Source: an uncultured bacterium (GTDB taxonomy: Bacteria; Armatimonadota; UBA5829). From it: a DNA stretch of 64,000 nucleotides. The translations under genes were made by a program, and so were the position numbers. The stretch spans positions 192,080 through 256,079 of the forward strand of contig CALJES010000012.1 in NCBI GenBank assembly GCA_938074205.1, read 5' to 3'. This document shows, in pieces, positions 25,097-56,432 of this stretch (the stretch's first letter is position 1; each line of letters opens with the position of its first letter). The notes beneath the pieces are model-generated. The model was not told the origin of the DNA. It did no database searches and saw nothing but the letters and a program-made list of their open reading frames with translations.

Positions 25097-25623
25097 AAAG
25101 TATTCTTCCGCAAAGCTTTGTTCACACGTAGATGGGGCAGCGCTGGTCACACATATCTTAAGCTCTTGTGTGCGATGGTTGTAACCAAGCTGGGGATGAA
25201 CTGAGGCACTGCTAGGGTTGTACAATCATGAAATTTATCTTGATGCCAAAACCCAGTAATATTACTAGTTGATAGCAGGTTGAAATCGTACTAGAATTCC
25301 GCAAAAATGAAAACAAAGCAGCAGGGTGCTCAAGTGGGCGAATGCCGGGAGTTGTGCCGCGTCGAGCGCTGATGTGTTCGGTCGATTCGCAAGCAGTAGA
25401 GATCAATGAGCAAGCGGAAGAGGAAGATATGGGCGGGAGGTTTATATGGTTTATTACAAAAGTTGTTCTGTTAGGGGTTCTTGCGGCTTGTGTGGTGGCG
25501 GACGATATTAACCCACCGTGATGGCGTAAGCTCGATGGAACCACATTCGCAAGATGGGAGTTCGGCACTGCCGATCTCAGACCTGCGCCCGATGCTGTAT
25601 TCAATCCGAACGGAATTCCCTTC

Positions 25624-26064
25624 GTGGATATATTCCCAGGTCACCTTTGGAATAGAGAGTATGCTGGGCGCATGGGATTATGGCCGCTTTCCGGGCTGAT
25701 AGTGATCGACATCTCGAACTACGGGCCGCCGAACCCCTATAAGTTGGTATGGATTCAGATTACTTGGACGTCGGAATCGCCTTACGCGGAACCAGTTGTA
25801 GATGAACTACTGTTCAAGGAGCGTGGCGAATTAGTGCAGCGAATCCATGTCGGACCCGTTGGTGCGGCGCTCTGGTGGCACGATACCTACTTGATCAAAA
25901 TCAAAATACTCCCCAATCCTACACGTGAAGTACTGCGTGTGCAGGGTGCAGTATGGGTTGACGAAGTAGTAGTTGACACCTATTGCGTTCCGGAGCCATC
26001 AACTACGGCAGCACTGGGCAGCATGGTGATTATGTTGGGCTTTGCGCTCCGACGAAGACGATAA
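25624..26064 (+). CDS. PEP-CTERM sorting-domain protein. The mature part is given here; the signal-peptide exon-like ORF at 25429..25518 lies in the same frame upstream of an in-frame TGA.
   Basis: C-terminus VPEPSTTAALGSMVIMLGFALRRRR is the VPEP motif, a TM helix and an Arg-rich tail. Frame 1 from ATG 25429 encodes MGGRFIWFITKVVLLGVLAACVVADDINPP, then TGA (25519..25521), then continues into this ORF. Confidence 0.6.
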   Translation: MDIFPGHLWNREYAGRMGLWPLSGLIVIDISNYGPPNPYKLVWIQITWTSESPYAEPVVDELLFKERGELVQRIHVGPVGAALWWHDTYLIKIKILPNPTREVLRVQGAVWVDEVVVDTYCVPEPSTTAALGSMVIMLGFALRRRR

Positions 26065-26093
26065 CCATCTCTTTGCGACTGCAGCGTGCTCGG

Positions 26094-26130
26094 TGCTGGA
26101 GGAACTCATAGCTCCTCCAGCACTGTTTTT
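26094..26130 (+). terminator. Rho-independent terminator downstream of the PEP-CTERM gene
   Basis: Perfect 10-bp inverted repeat TGCTGGAGGA/TCCTCCAGCA with a 9-nt loop, followed by CTGTTTTT. Confidence 0.45.
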
Positions 26131-28854
26131 CTAGGGAGCGAATGGGGTTATGACGTCGCCCTTGAACGTTTGCGGTGTGCCGAATCCGACGACACAGCTC
26201 TTTCTGCCCAGGGCAGCTATTCTAAGCGAAGGTTCCGGATTCGAAGCCAACACACGCACAACATCTCCCTCATAGATGACTTCCAAGCTTTTTAAAGGTT
26301 TGTCCGAAGACGCCAGGACGCGTCCCCGAAAGTTGAGCATTTTCCCCTCAACCCACGCGAAGCTGGACACTTTGTTGCTTTCGACTCTGACCACTGCGGC
26401 CGATCCTTCAAACCACAGTTGGTCAGTACCTACTGCGTTAAAGCAAACAAAGTCGGTGCCACGCCCTTCGGGTAAGTCCACTCTCCAGCCAGATTCACCT
26501 ATGGTGCTAATGCTAACCCGCGGTGGACGCCTTCCCTTGTATGGGAAGATTAGAGTGTGGAATTTGACCGGGAGCTCACATTTAGCGGAATACTTGAGCC
26601 CCTTGGCGGGATCAAGCTTCGCTTCTCCCACCGGCAGGCCGTAATCGTAGAGCTCCGACTTGAAATTTCCGTCAGCGCATAATTTGACGAGCACGTTCCC
26701 GTCAGGGTTTCGTGTAGAACACGTGTTTGTATGCGCGTCTAGCACAACTTCGCCGGGATTGAATGGAAAGCGAGTCGCGACTTCGTGTTCCCCACTTCCA
26801 CTAACCATATCTTGGAAGATCCAGTAGTCCGGTTTGACAAACACTATTCGACGGGTGTGTAGGATATCATCAGGTAAACCTTCATACCCGGTGTTAGTGC
26901 CCTCGAAGTAGTCCACTGTGCGCTGGCTAACCCACTTGTTGGTACCCATGTTACGGACTTTGGTGTCTGCGTCGTCTACCGTGACTGTGGCATGGTTTCG
27001 GGATTTATAAAGCTCCGAATGGTACTTCGTTCCATAAATGTAGCATCCTGGGTCCACTATCAGCTTCCGGCCGTATGCGTCAATCACCACTGAGAGCTCA
27101 TCGGCGTGGCCGTGACCCATGTCTTTACCGTTGTGAAGATTGAGGTATAAAGCCTCAGAAGACCAATCAGACCTCATAACCATCCAACCGCCTACGGGGA
27201 AGAAAGCCGAAGTCCCAAGCGGCCGCTTGCCTTGTTTGCCATTGGTTGCCACATATCGGAAGTCTTCACGACCGTAATAATCGGCACCCCACTCGAGTTG
27301 GGTTTTGCTTGATACATAGTTGAAGGTATCACCTCGACTGGGCAGCAGCCCGTCAGGTTCAGTGTTGTACATTAGGTACTCGAGAGTCTTTTCAACCCGT
27401 TTGACATACTTGGATTCTAGCGTTTTGTTAAGCTTCTTACACGTATCGAGAAGCGCCTTGTACCGGTTTATGATCAGCGTTGTGTAACCAAACGTGGGTT
27501 CCTGGACGGATCCATCAGCACGGCTGGTAGACCAGAGGTTGTTAATCATCTCCGTCACGCCCTGCTCGAACCATTCCTTGCTCTTAGCCAGTTCGGGATG
27601 GCGTTCCGCGAGAGAGTACAGCGCTGTCGTCATTTGAGACTCCCAGTTACCACCGCCTTTCTGAAGCGCCAAGACCTCCGCCATGTCCACCATGTTGAAA
27701 ATCCAAGCAGCTCGAATGTCGCGTGAGAAGTTGGGGGAGGCGTGCATGCCTGAGTAAGCCCACCATATTTGGTTCATACGAACACCAATCGACAGCCCTG
27801 CCCACATTGAGCCGCCTGCAATACCAGGCTCCGGTGCTGCGTTCACTCGTTTGTCGTCAGGCTTTATAACACCTGCTCTAAGTGGCGAGGGCATATCGTT
27901 GAGGAAATGGAACATAAACTCGTTGAAAGCCTTCGCGTACTTCTCATCGCCAGTGTTCAAATAAGCCGAACGGAAGTTCTTGAACAATCCGGTCCGGGTT
28001 AAACCTACTCCGCCACGAGTCGGCCATTCACGATAGTGATTCCAATTGGGACCCAAGTCGACTACAGTGCCCGCTGGATCCTTGTACTTCATCTCCAACA
28101 CGAGATCGTCCAGCGACGTATCATACTTGGGGTTCTTCTTAGGCTTGTCCTGCGGATTAACCAGATCCGTGCGCGACTCGTAGTATTTGATTAGCTCGTC
28201 GACTGCCTTGTCCCAGTCTTTTACGGCGACTGCTGCTTTGACCTTTTCCAGCCCTGGGTACTCCAAGTTCCAGCGCGAGAACCTGTCGGCGTAAGCGGCG
28301 TCTTTATCGAAGAGAGGTCTCGAATGAACCTCGAACCATATGTTGTTCTCGGCTGGCTTACCGCCCTCGTATGCTTGACCACCTTTGTACCTGCCGCCCA
28401 GAAAAATGCCCACGATCTGGCCGTCACCGCCATTGACTGTCAGCTCAAAGTAGTATTGCGTAGACGGTCGGACGGGAGCGTTGAGGGTGAACATAATCAC
28501 ACCGCCTTCCCAGGCTCGCCACTTGTAGGGCATTTCAGCTGAGGCAATCCGCTTCAATTTCTCGGGCGAATCCCACAGCGTAAGAACTAGTGATTCGTCC
28601 TCTGTCCAGCTAGTATGCCACCAGGCGTCAGCTATCGCTATGCGCGACACTTCTACTATGTTCGGCCCCGTAGTGAAGGTTTGACCAATGGAGTTCTCCC
28701 GTGTAATAGTTTTGAACTGCTTGTAGTTAACGGGTCCATTGGACACATCAAGAACCATATTGTTGAGAATCCTGTCGAGCACTTCACCACCAACACAAGA
28801 ACATGGGCTAATAGCCAACAGGAGAAGCGCTAGTGAAACGGTTACTCTTCTCAC
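26131..28854 (-). CDS. Secreted heparinase II/III-like polysaccharide lyase
   Basis: 907 aa with a signal peptide. Alpha/alpha-toroid region and HNGKDMGHGHADELSVVIDAYGRKLIVDPG (heparinase II/III signature), then a C-terminal beta-sandwich. Confidence 0.7.
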   Translation of the reverse strand: MRRVTVSLALLLLAISPCSCVGGEVLDRILNNMVLDVSNGPVNYKQFKTITRENSIGQTFTTGPNIVEVSRIAIADAWWHTSWTEDESLVLTLWDSPEKLKRIASAEMPYKWRAWEGGVIMFTLNAPVRPSTQYYFELTVNGGDGQIVGIFLGGRYKGGQAYEGGKPAENNIWFEVHSRPLFDKDAAYADRFSRWNLEYPGLEKVKAAVAVKDWDKAVDELIKYYESRTDLVNPQDKPKKNPKYDTSLDDLVLEMKYKDPAGTVVDLGPNWNHYREWPTRGGVGLTRTGLFKNFRSAYLNTGDEKYAKAFNEFMFHFLNDMPSPLRAGVIKPDDKRVNAAPEPGIAGGSMWAGLSIGVRMNQIWWAYSGMHASPNFSRDIRAAWIFNMVDMAEVLALQKGGGNWESQMTTALYSLAERHPELAKSKEWFEQGVTEMINNLWSTSRADGSVQEPTFGYTTLIINRYKALLDTCKKLNKTLESKYVKRVEKTLEYLMYNTEPDGLLPSRGDTFNYVSSKTQLEWGADYYGREDFRYVATNGKQGKRPLGTSAFFPVGGWMVMRSDWSSEALYLNLHNGKDMGHGHADELSVVIDAYGRKLIVDPGCYIYGTKYHSELYKSRNHATVTVDDADTKVRNMGTNKWVSQRTVDYFEGTNTGYEGLPDDILHTRRIVFVKPDYWIFQDMVSGSGEHEVATRFPFNPGEVVLDAHTNTCSTRNPDGNVLVKLCADGNFKSELYDYGLPVGEAKLDPAKGLKYSAKCELPVKFHTLIFPYKGRRPPRVSISTIGESGWRVDLPEGRGTDFVCFNAVGTDQLWFEGSAAVVRVESNKVSSFAWVEGKMLNFRGRVLASSDKPLKSLEVIYEGDVVRVLASNPEPSLRIAALGRKSCVVGFGTPQTFKGDVITPFAP

Positions 28855-40808: not shown

Positions 40809-42098
40809 TTACAAATTCAGGCACTTCCCAAGAAGGTAGTGTTTTCTATCTGGGTAGAATATGGTAACCTTGCCGTTTTCTTCCACCAGGCTGCAATAAG
40901 TTGCCACCTGTGTCCTATTGGTTCCGGGAGCGGGAATCCAATTCGTGTCTGCGAAAATCCGCGGTTGCTCAAATCGGATCGGGTGATCCTTTTCACCGGG
41001 AATCTCATATCCAACCGTGATCCAAGCAGGGTTGCGGACATTAGCCGCATCTGTCGGTCCTTGTCCGCCGTGTCCGGAACCGTCGTTGTTGTAAAAAATG
41101 AGAACGAATCTTCCATCTCTAAGTTTGTACAGCGGACACGGGGCAAGCGGGTTCAAGATAGGCTTACCTCCCGGTTCGTACCTGAGCGGTCTTGGCTCAT
41201 CCCAACTGCGTCCGTCGTCCTCGGAAAGAGCGTAGTAGATGCAGCCTCGCAAGGTTCGGAAAACGCAAATTAACCTTCCATCTGATAGTGGCTGCACAGT
41301 TGGTTCCTGCGCAACGCTTATGCCAGGTCTAAACGGGCTTTCGACTCGGAGACCGTGCGGTGACTTTGGCCAGGTAGTTACGATAAGCTTGCGGGGGTCT
41401 GCTTCCGTAAGGATATTTTCAAATCGTAGGAAACAGATCTCAGAATCGCGTTCCAACATTCCTACGCCTGGGTCGACAGCGTTCGACGCCCACCGTGTGA
41501 AACCGGCTAGAACATGCCCGGACAGAAGTACCACAGGGTTCTGGTAAACAATCCACGTCTGTGGTACGGTGGGGTCAGGATTGCTTATGGCATTCGGCTC
41601 GATAGGGTAATCGAAGGCTTCGGGACTCCATGTCTTGCCGTCATCGTCTGAGTAGCGCCCTCGCAACACCCCGGTGTCCGCTGCACGCGCATCGTCGATT
41701 CCTACGTTCTTGTTGTAGAAGCACCAAATGAGTTGTCCGGCTACAATGAGGAATTGCCAGCTAGCCATTCCGGTTCCCGGTTCATCATCCGGACTGGCAC
41801 CGTCAATTACCTTAGGTGGTGACCAAGTCAACCCGTTGTCCTCAGACCGGCTGTACATTACCCTTTGGTCCGGAGCACCTTCGTAAGTGGCAGACGTCCA
41901 CGTTGCCAAGTAAGCCCCTTTGGGTGTCAAAATGGCGTTGAGGTGTTGATTAGTTTCGCCGGCCGCTTTGACAGGGTCAGGTACATAGACTACGATATCA
42001 GGTTCAGTTCGCAACCATTCTTTTTCCAAATTCTCCAATTCGCACTCCTCCTTATTATGGCAAGGCCAGTATGTGACCCATGCAGTAGCTCTTGACAC
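40809..42098 (-). CDS. BNR/Asp-box repeat beta-propeller glycosidase (sialidase-like)
   Basis: Three Asp-boxes: SEDNGLTWS, SDDDGKTWS and SEDDGRSWD. No obvious N-terminal signal peptide. Confidence 0.7.
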   Translation of the reverse strand: MSRATAWVTYWPCHNKEECELENLEKEWLRTEPDIVVYVPDPVKAAGETNQHLNAILTPKGAYLATWTSATYEGAPDQRVMYSRSEDNGLTWSPPKVIDGASPDDEPGTGMASWQFLIVAGQLIWCFYNKNVGIDDARAADTGVLRGRYSDDDGKTWSPEAFDYPIEPNAISNPDPTVPQTWIVYQNPVVLLSGHVLAGFTRWASNAVDPGVGMLERDSEICFLRFENILTEADPRKLIVTTWPKSPHGLRVESPFRPGISVAQEPTVQPLSDGRLICVFRTLRGCIYYALSEDDGRSWDEPRPLRYEPGGKPILNPLAPCPLYKLRDGRFVLIFYNNDGSGHGGQGPTDAANVRNPAWITVGYEIPGEKDHPIRFEQPRIFADTNWIPAPGTNRTQVATYCSLVEENGKVTIFYPDRKHYLLGKCLNL

Positions 42099-42205: not shown

Positions 42206-42952
42206 ATGTCTACGGGCTGCAAGCACGGCGGGTTTACCCTTATCGAGCTGCTGGTTGTAATAGCTATCATCGCTATATTGGCCGCGATACTCTTCCCTGT
42301 CTTCATATCCGCAAGACAAAGTGCCGCACTCAGTAAGTGTCAAAGCCACCAGAAAGAGCTGGTTCAAGCTCTCATGATGTACACGGATGCCTGGAACGGC
42401 AAGCTTCCTTGGATACAGTTCCTGACCTACCACGATTTCGGCGGCACGCTTGCTCGGTATCCGTGGGTTCATATGGTTCGACTATATGAGCCCTATGTCA
42501 AAAACTTCAACATATTGCTTTGTCCTCAGAAATACTACGACAACTGGTATCGTGAGGTTAGGCATCAAGGATACGCTTACAATGAATGCCTCTGCGGGCG
42601 GTTAAGTACTACTCCAATTAAGACTTCGAGATTCGATGTTTATTTCATCGCCGACAGAGACGGCCGTCTGTTGGCTAGTATACCTAGAGTTTCCAGGACC
42701 CCGGCTTTCTTTTGCGCAATGAGTTTTCATCCGGCTCCCGGCGATTACGGTCCCAACGGGTGGGGCTGGGAGCCCATAGATGCGCTGAACTCGTATAGGA
42801 TGACCAATGCTCACAGAGGCGGTTCGAACTACGCGTTCCTGGACGGGCACGTGCGTTGGTTGAAACCTGCGGGAGGAGGCATATACAATGCGACAGATGG
42901 CTTGGACTACGATGGCAACGGCACGCTGGGCGACTCCTTGGTCTTGAGGTAG
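42206..42952 (+). CDS. Prepilin-type N-terminal cleavage/methylation-domain protein with DUF1559 (H-X9-DG)
   Basis: GGFTLIELLVVIAIIAILAAILFPVF pilin-like N-terminus; C-terminal HRGGSNYAFLDGHVRWL (H-X9-DG-like). Confidence 0.8.
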   Translation: MSTGCKHGGFTLIELLVVIAIIAILAAILFPVFISARQSAALSKCQSHQKELVQALMMYTDAWNGKLPWIQFLTYHDFGGTLARYPWVHMVRLYEPYVKNFNILLCPQKYYDNWYREVRHQGYAYNECLCGRLSTTPIKTSRFDVYFIADRDGRLLASIPRVSRTPAFFCAMSFHPAPGDYGPNGWGWEPIDALNSYRMTNAHRGGSNYAFLDGHVRWLKPAGGGIYNATDGLDYDGNGTLGDSLVLR

Positions 42953-42966
42953 GAGGGCGAAATAAC

Positions 42967-43713
42967 ATGGCGCGCAGACAAACTCTTGGGTTCACGTTGA
43001 TAGAACTTCTCGTCGTAATTGCAATCATTGCAATCTTAGCAGCGGTATTTTATCCGGTGCTTTTGAGTGCGAAGGAAAAAGCCAACACCGGTAAGTGCCA
43101 GGCGCACATGAAAGAGCTATGTGCCGCGCTGTTCGCATACATCGATGACTATGGCGGCAAGATGCCCAGCATGCAGTTCCTGAGCTGGTGGAAGTATGGC
43201 GATTTCGAAGTGCACCTGTACGATAAGTACGTCAAGAACAACGAGATAGTAATCTGTCCACAGCCTTACTACGACACTGCACATTATCCGCCGAGTATTC
43301 GTCGAATGGCTTATGGCTACAACGAGACCTTAGTGGATCCACTACCTAACTATTTCTACACGGCGCCCGGTGCCTACGGGCGGATTGAGGTATATGGGCC
43401 GCCAAAGTATTACATGCCTGGCCGAGGACGTATGCTAAGTGAAATCCGCACACCCACCCGTACGCCGGCGTTTTTCTGCACGTTCTCACACCACGTATCT
43501 CCAGACGGCCTTGCGCGGGGGTTCGGGTGGGGCGCCGACGATGCAGTGAATCCAAAGCGACATCCAAATAGGCACGGCAATGGTTCGAATTATGCCTTTC
43601 TGGACGGGCACGTGCGGTTCTCACCTCCAGCTGGCGGGATATTCTGTGTGCCTATCGAAGGTCTAGACTACGACGGCAACGGCACTTACGGCGACAAGCA
43701 GATCATGCGCTGA
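42967..43713 (+). CDS. Prepilin-type/DUF1559 paralog (tandem duplicate); ATG 42967 chosen instead of ORF-track 42856
   Basis: MARRQTLGFTLIELLVVIAIIAILAAVFYPVL and C-terminal HGNGSNYAFLDGHVRF. Collinear similarity to 42206..42952 throughout. Confidence 0.8.
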   Translation: MARRQTLGFTLIELLVVIAIIAILAAVFYPVLLSAKEKANTGKCQAHMKELCAALFAYIDDYGGKMPSMQFLSWWKYGDFEVHLYDKYVKNNEIVICPQPYYDTAHYPPSIRRMAYGYNETLVDPLPNYFYTAPGAYGRIEVYGPPKYYMPGRGRMLSEIRTPTRTPAFFCTFSHHVSPDGLARGFGWGADDAVNPKRHPNRHGNGSNYAFLDGHVRFSPPAGGIFCVPIEGLDYDGNGTYGDKQIMR

Positions 43714-55967: not shown

Positions 55968-56432
55968 ATGCGATGTGGTCGTTTTGAACTGAGTTTGATA
56001 CACTATGTTCTAGTAGCAGTTCTGACATTATTATCACTTATTGGTGCCGGATGTGGTGGCGGCGGTGCTGGGGTGGTGGATAAGGAGCCGCCGACAGTGT
56101 TCATTGTGAGCTTCACAGGACTGCTGCCCGCTACGGGTGGAACTGCAACTATAGACGTCGATGCTACGGATGATGTCGGTGTAGTGCGTGTGGAAGTTAA
56201 GGTAACAAAACCAGATGGCTCGTCGTCGCTCGTAACAGCGACGAAAACAGGCAACATTTGGCGTGCACAATTCGACGCACCTGCCAATTCCGGGACCCAA
56301 GCTGCGGTATATAGGTTCGTTGCCTACGCTTACGATGCTGCCGGAAAGGTGGCAACATCGGAAGAACGGTCCTTCCAAGTTAGTGCCCCGGATATACCGC
56401 CACCTCCTCCTCCGTTTGTGACAGGCAAATAA
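55968..56432 (+). CDS. Small putative lipoprotein carrying the same Ig-like capping domain as the giant protein (ORF track 55839..56432; ATG 55968 preferred)
   Basis: MRCGRFELSLIHYVLVAVLTLLSLIGAGC signal/lipobox-like N-terminus, then ATGGTATIDVDATDDVGVVRVEVKV..YDAAGK, which parallels AGTAHDDVGISRVTW..ADAAGN and GEASDNIGLAVVTW..FDQAGN in the giant protein. Pro-rich tail PDIPPPPPPF. Confidence 0.5.
   Translation: MRCGRFELSLIHYVLVAVLTLLSLIGAGCGGGGAGVVDKEPPTVFIVSFTGLLPATGGTATIDVDATDDVGVVRVEVKVTKPDGSSSLVTATKTGNIWRAQFDAPANSGTQAAVYRFVAYAYDAAGKVATSEERSFQVSAPDIPPPPPPFVTGK

Follow-up and report, generated by a model that had tools for sequence, protein, structure and literature searches.

A single in-frame TGA divides a PEP-CTERM gene

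The longest part of the window (the whole 64,000-nucleotide stretch of DNA analysed here) without an intact ORF, 25097-26130, holds one gene that is divided by a premature TGA (Table 1). From the start codon, ATG 25429-25431, the 30 codons ahead of the TGA encode MGGRFIWFITKVVLLGVLAACVVADDINPP, in which residues 1-24 form a Sec signal peptide, predicted to be cleaved at VVA↓DD, ahead of the first six mature residues (MGGRFIWFITKVVLLGVLAACVVA↓DDINPP). Past the TGA, translation meets no further stop or frameshift in 180 codons, and the read-through product ends in ...CVPEPSTTAALGSMVIMLGFALRRRR, a C-terminus that lies above the cutoff of NCBIfam model TIGR02595 (21.2 bits versus 16) and below that of Pfam model PF07589 (17.1 versus 20.7). 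No other site in the window has one stop parting two substantial same-frame segments outside other genes, and this is the only split gene in the 64 kb. An initial annotation of the window had described a PEP-CTERM gene opened by ATG 25429 with an RBS and a signal peptide, split by a single in-frame TGA at 25519..25521 and leaving a downstream ORF that by itself lacks the signal peptide; the sequence, its translation, the TIGR02595 match and the alignments given below all agree with that description. The frame is open to the TAA as it stated, but the 181 codons that it counted after the TGA include this stop, the sense codons numbering 180.

The earliest in-frame start past the TGA is GTG 25624, while the public gene call for the genome begins at ATG 25672 and yields a 130-aa protein (P0003) that is 100% identical over 130 aa to the sequence here, being a truncated gene call of the same genome. 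Gene callers thus annotate two ORFs at the locus, of 49 aa and 130 aa (P0003). An out-of-frame ATG overlapping the TGA (25521-25523) was considered as a route for re-initiation and rejected, as it opens only Met-Ala-stop. The opposite-strand ORF at 25212-25604 (130 aa, TTG start) was likewise dismissed as spurious; it runs across the conserved promoter and the signal-peptide region, and no assembly has a gene call there.

The signal peptide (25429-25500) contains a lipobox-like motif, L-A-A-C, with V-A-A-C as its counterpart in the closest relative, P0001. Because this motif is not conserved across the family while the AxA↓DD signal-peptidase-I site is, cleavage by signal peptidase I appears to be the likelier route of processing.

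Table 1. Features of the split gene and its surroundings (window coordinates unless a locus is named)
Feature	Position	Strand	Description
12-nt perfect palindrome AGTAATATTACT	25255..25266		3 nt upstream of the -35 box; single occurrence in the window
Palindrome-promoter module	window 25255-25297; L002 2571-2612; L003 4835-4876; L006 2812-2853		Located in the window and in three orthologous intergenic regions
Sigma-70-like promoter (predicted)	25269..25297	+	TTGATA, 17-nt spacer, TAGAAT; consensus scan 10/12
Shine-Dalgarno-like GGAAGAGGAAG	25416..25426	+	Direct reading; aligns with GGAAGGAGGGAG in L002
5' gene fragment	25429..25518	+	Signal peptide and 6 mature residues, DDINPP; 30 codons, by translation; aligns with the N-termini of full-length homologues
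Premature TGA stop	25519..25521	+	From ancestral TGG (Trp31) by alignment, G→A at 25521
Remainder of gene	25522..26061	+	180 codons; WR..GTT...WEF motif, beta-sandwich domain, PEP-CTERM tail
In-frame tandem duplication ATCAAA-ATCAAA	25894..25905	+	Adds Ile-Lys shortly before the conserved PNP motif in the beta-sandwich domain
PEP-CTERM tail	25987-26061	+	VPEP, TM helix, RRRR; TIGR02595 match
Normal TAA stop of the gene	26062..26064	+	Direct sequence reading, translation
Intrinsic terminator (predicted)	26091..26132	+	13-bp G+C-rich stem 26091-26125, then UGUUUUUC (U-tract); by folding

The predicted expression signals are intact

The split gene is flanked by a predicted promoter, RBS and terminator that are intact and conserved (Table 1). 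In three other lineages the promoter aligns with TTGACA or TAGACA, followed 17 nt on by a TAnAnT box (TACACT, TAAAGT, TAGACT). Downstream of the gene the terminator, which the consensus scan overlooked, folds at -26.8 kcal/mol (z = -3.09 versus shuffles).

Directly upstream of the -35 box lies a palindrome whose counterpart, GGTAATATTACC, occupies the same place in the orthologous intergenic regions L002, L003 and L006. The window version differs from it at both outermost positions (G..C to A..T), with the dyad kept. In four lineages, with protein identities as low as 45%, the start codon follows the palindrome at a distance of ~155-180 nt. With this pattern of conservation, the palindrome is probably bound by a dimeric regulator of the gene family, as an operator or activator site with its centre near -43.

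Positional orthologues read TGG at the site of the stop

With the read-through product as query, 5.8 billion protein clusters yielded 18 homologues, most of them 205-223 aa long and covering 89-100% of the query. Alignments of the 205-223 aa homologues run through the stop and take in 99-100% of the read-through product, so two unrelated ORFs have not come to lie together here by chance. Where a homologue is named, the annotation is that of an Armatimonadota PEP-CTERM protein. The two nearest are P0001 (80% identity, from MAG GCA_029907315.1) and P0002 (63% identity, from Logan SRR16588181, a run named in work that mined metagenomes from a hot-spring environment; PMC10787698). Both are positional orthologues, given that their loci share the gene order of the window, in which an ADP-ribosylglycohydrolase gene and argS precede the gene and a convergent heparinase II/III gene (-) follows it.

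In the protein alignment P0001 and P0002 read DDINPPWWRK/N where the window reads DDINPP*WRK, and in the DNA alignment the orthologous loci (L002 and L003) have CCNCCG TGG TGG CGC against CCACCG TGA TGG CGT in the window. Since both positional orthologues read TGG at the site, the stop is on this alignment a single TGG to TGA transition (G→A at 25521, Trp31→stop), and the direction of the change is from sense codon to stop. Every other homologue also carries a sense codon here. The column holds a sense residue in all 151 full-length family representatives aligned, and three more metagenomic loci at 40-55% identity are uninterrupted; a stop at this position was thus found in no relative among the 16 aligned homologues, the 151 representatives and the three metagenomic loci. 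The residue in the column itself varies (P in 59 of the 151, S in 20, E in 13, D in 12, T in 8, A in 8 and other residues in the rest, with W and L also occurring), whereas its neighbours are near-invariant: P at -1 in 143/151, W at +1 in 147/151, R at +2 in 140/151 and G at +3 in 125/151. The A↓DD..PP motif ahead of it is conserved in the 151 representatives.

The intact protein belongs to a large family with a modelled beta-sandwich

A profile search of 1.84 billion representatives gave 2,794 matches at E<=1e-3 (468 at E<=1e-30), placing the size of the family at no fewer than 2,794 clusters at 50% identity. Its members are ~205-230 aa long and share the conserved N-terminus A↓DD..PPxWRG..GTT.Q.WEF. 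A few representatives are far longer (950-2,200 aa), with the profile matching in three stretches of each (e.g. P0022-P0025, P0040).

For the orthologue P0001, AlphaFold2 gave a confident model from the 16-sequence alignment (mean pLDDT 88.6, pTM 0.78), with a signal helix at the N-terminus, then an all-beta sandwich of ~150 residues and a helix at the C-terminus. Foldseek found no match to this model in the PDB at E<1e-3; the best PDB matches are generic (jelly-roll, CBM, Eph-LBD and TNF-like lectin; TM ~0.3, E >= 1.3e-3), and no Pfam or NCBIfam model matches the ~160-aa passenger domain. The N-terminal signal peptide and the C-terminal VPEP, hydrophobic helix and Arg cluster are those of PEP-CTERM/exosortase-sorted proteins (TIGR02595, PF07589), by analogy with which the intact protein is presumably cell-surface or matrix-associated and sorted by an exosortase; the difference is that such proteins carry their signal peptide in the same ORF, while here it is parted from the rest by the TGA. 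No exosortase was found among the 40 large window ORFs scanned against Pfam. Both this large PEP-CTERM beta-sandwich family, for which there is no Pfam or NCBIfam domain model, and the palindrome-plus-promoter module conserved in several lineages may be more useful than the stop itself.

The window copy carries private changes in addition to the stop

Pairwise dN/dS against P0001 is ~0.045, with dS saturated, and on this ratio the gene was under purifying selection for most of its history. When lineage-specific changes were polarised with P0002 as outgroup, 18 amino acid changes fell on the window branch and 5 on the P0001 branch (synonymous-type changes 22:27), against 23 and 15 for argS (108:103) and 39 and 29 for the heparinase II/III gene (129:121). 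The synonymous-type counts are balanced between the branches in all three genes. Set against the two flanking genes together (62:44), the 18:5 ratio of the split gene gives p = 0.098 by Fisher's test and p = 0.04 by a one-sided binomial test. Seven of the private changes of the window gene lie in the fast-evolving signal peptide, while two, V84L and P96S, fall in conserved columns where the ancestral residue is present in 12 of 16 homologues each. The Ile-Lys added by the tandem duplication is unique to this genome, its columns being gapped in all 17 other rows of the alignment (16 homologues) and in all 151 representatives. These differences hint weakly at relaxed constraint on the window copy. 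Taken with the intact expression signals, they describe a probably recent inactivation, perhaps after a short spell of such relaxation.

A recent nonsense mutation is the most probable explanation of the stop

We propose that the TGA is a real and recent nonsense mutation (W31*) that inactivates, fully or nearly, a single-copy gene for a PEP-CTERM surface protein, and we put the probability of this at roughly three in four. The G→A change would replace Trp31 six residues past the signal-peptidase site. Ribosomes starting at ATG 25429 would stop after 30 codons, releasing the signal peptide and DDINPP, while starts at GTG 25624 or ATG 25672 would give cytoplasmic fragments that lack both the signal peptide and the conserved WR..GTT..WEF segment and could not reach an exosortase. 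With a 30-codon product and internal-start fragments that are not exported, little or no function of the gene would remain in the sequenced population. The mutation should be recent because every other feature of the gene is intact, and we infer a loss of function, making the gene a young pseudogene or a loss-of-function allele, possibly slightly leaky through tRNA-Trp. It is an event of an ordinary and already known kind. Nonsense pseudogenes and recent loss-of-function alleles in bacteria likewise combine one base change in an intact, syntenic gene with uninterrupted orthologues and truncated gene calls, and nothing essential differs here; what is particular is the youth of the lesion, beside which this genome has only an in-frame 6-nt duplication and a weakly raised number of substitutions of its own. 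The initial annotation had offered a fresh pseudogene, a sequencing error and a recoded or read-through stop as possible readings. The first of these is supported, the second has become less likely and the third is not supported, on grounds set out below; sense codons in orthologues, which the initial annotation had named as a refuting result, are what the alignments show.

The stop could instead be a sequencing, assembly or consensus artefact, in that the organism has TGG, or that the assembler took TGA from a mixed population in which it is a minority or co-dominant allele. We consider this unlikely. The difference amounts to one base, the genome was assembled from a metagenome and is known from one run only (ERR9287632), and there is no same-species sequence elsewhere to serve as a cross-check: a degenerate DNA pattern search of genome contigs for strains of the same species returned the P0001 MAG only, the 5.8 billion protein clusters contain nothing closer than 80% besides the genome's own P0003, the metagenome scan gave relatives at 40-55% identity only, and exact-protein look-ups lead to a single sample. 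Against an artefact, Logan assembled the reads of ERR9287632 independently, and its 161-kb contig matches the window without a difference over 6,393 nt, the TGA among them, which makes a sequencing error less likely. None of the other ~43 genes in the window is broken, so the assembly is not error-prone, and the 6-nt duplication and extra private substitutions in the same gene fit a real lineage-specific history. We infer that the change is biological rather than a read-level artefact.

A second alternative, slightly more doubtful than an artefact, accepts the mutation as real and holds that it is leaky: near-cognate tRNA-Trp would read the UGA at a low rate and restore Trp, the preceding Pro-Pro would slow the release factor, and the gene would remain partly functional and selected. 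The tRNA-Trp of E. coli and B. subtilis does misread UGA, the most read-through-prone stop (PMC5289835), and such misreading would give back exactly the ancestral residue and hence the ancestral protein, as in the leaky UGA suppression by wild-type tRNA-Trp and phenotypic suppression of opal mutations attributed to Engelberg-Kulka 1981 as cited in PMC5289835. Any inserted residue should moreover be tolerated because family members have various residues in the stop column (P, S, E, D, T, A, W), and the rest of the gene is intact, though intactness is equally expected of a very recent knock-out. The local context points the other way. The base at +4 is U, and UGA-U is associated with low read-through (PMC5289835); no stimulatory RNA structure was found past the stop. 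Pro-Pro before a stop slows termination in E. coli, but there it leads mainly to arrested ribosomes, cleavage of the mRNA in the A site and ssrA tagging (PMC3834316), a route to degradation and not to read-through. Nor does any orthologue keep a stop here, which, like the U at +4, sets the case apart from the leaky suppression just cited. A trickle of functional full-length protein is plausible all the same. That the opal codon is tolerated through phenotypic suppression by a wild-type or variant tRNA-Trp, the allele being down-tuned and still selected, has a slimmer chance still.

Programmed recoding of the UGA by selenocysteine, by a suppressor or 4-bp-anticodon-stem tRNA-Trp or by an alternative genetic code is very improbable. 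As in bacterial selenoprotein genes, the UGA lies in frame inside a conserved ORF, at a position that is Trp in the nearest relatives, and UGA-decoding tRNAs exist in some standard-code bacteria (PMC13092985). The SECIS that adjoins the UGA in selenoprotein genes is not matched here by any SECIS-like or read-through-stimulating hairpin past the TGA, the outcome for the structure that the initial annotation had raised: the 81 nt at 25510-25590 fold at -22 kcal/mol against a shuffle mean of -21.5 (z = -0.15), and Rfam gives no match in 25300-25800 at E<=10. No Cys (or Sec) is aligned with the stop in the 16 homologues, Cys is outside the six commonest residues of the column in the 151 representatives, and none of selA, selB, selC and selD lies within the window. 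Selenocysteine was rejected on the fold, the Rfam result and the aligned residues. A UGA-reassigned code (tables 4 / 25) is excluded by stop-codon usage, TGA being the most used stop in the window, where it ends 18 of the 43 large ORFs (argS directly upstream included, as the initial annotation had remarked) and occurs in frame in no other gene. The window tRNAs are Asn-GTT and Lys-TTT only. With a stop that is conserved in no relative and U at +4, programmed read-through is not supported.

Least credible of all is that the locus makes two functional products independently, a small peptide upstream of the stop and a protein begun downstream of it at GTG 25624 or ATG 25672, as the gene callers' 49-aa and 130-aa ORFs would have it: 145 of the 151 full-length relatives have the hydrophobic N-terminal stretch and 148 of 151 the PEP tail, so signal peptide, domain and tail belong to one ORF, and a protein begun at ATG 25672 would be missing the near-invariant W-R-G..T-T...W-E-F segment as well as the first beta-strands of the sandwich in the model, while keeping a C-terminal membrane anchor and sorting signal without an export signal.

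In annotation, one disrupted gene (W31*) should take the place of the two hypothetical ORFs of 49 and 130 aa, and the locus should not be put forward as a case of stop-codon recoding in Armatimonadota.

Other features of the window

Several further features were observed elsewhere in the window. A giant ORF at 47251-55908 (+) encodes 2,885 aa with Big_12 Ig-like, proprotein-convertase P-domain and BNR-like matches, and a 197-aa ORF at 55839-56432 (+) overlaps its end by ~70 nt. At 42206-43713 (+) two adjoining ORFs of 248 and 285 aa have N-terminal prepilin-type N_methyl motifs, as in type IV pilin/pseudopilin-like proteins, and a BNR/sialidase-like gene (40809-42098, -) adjoins this pair. The segment 148-8282 (-) contains, from its far end inwards, a PF02540 NAD-synthase-family ORF, AIR-carboxylase-like (LarB-like) and Ni_insertion (LarC-like) genes, an amidohydrolase, an Rce1-like CAAX protease, tRNA-Asn and HypF, and looks like a LarB/LarC-type nickel-pincer cofactor cluster together with a hydrogenase maturation gene.
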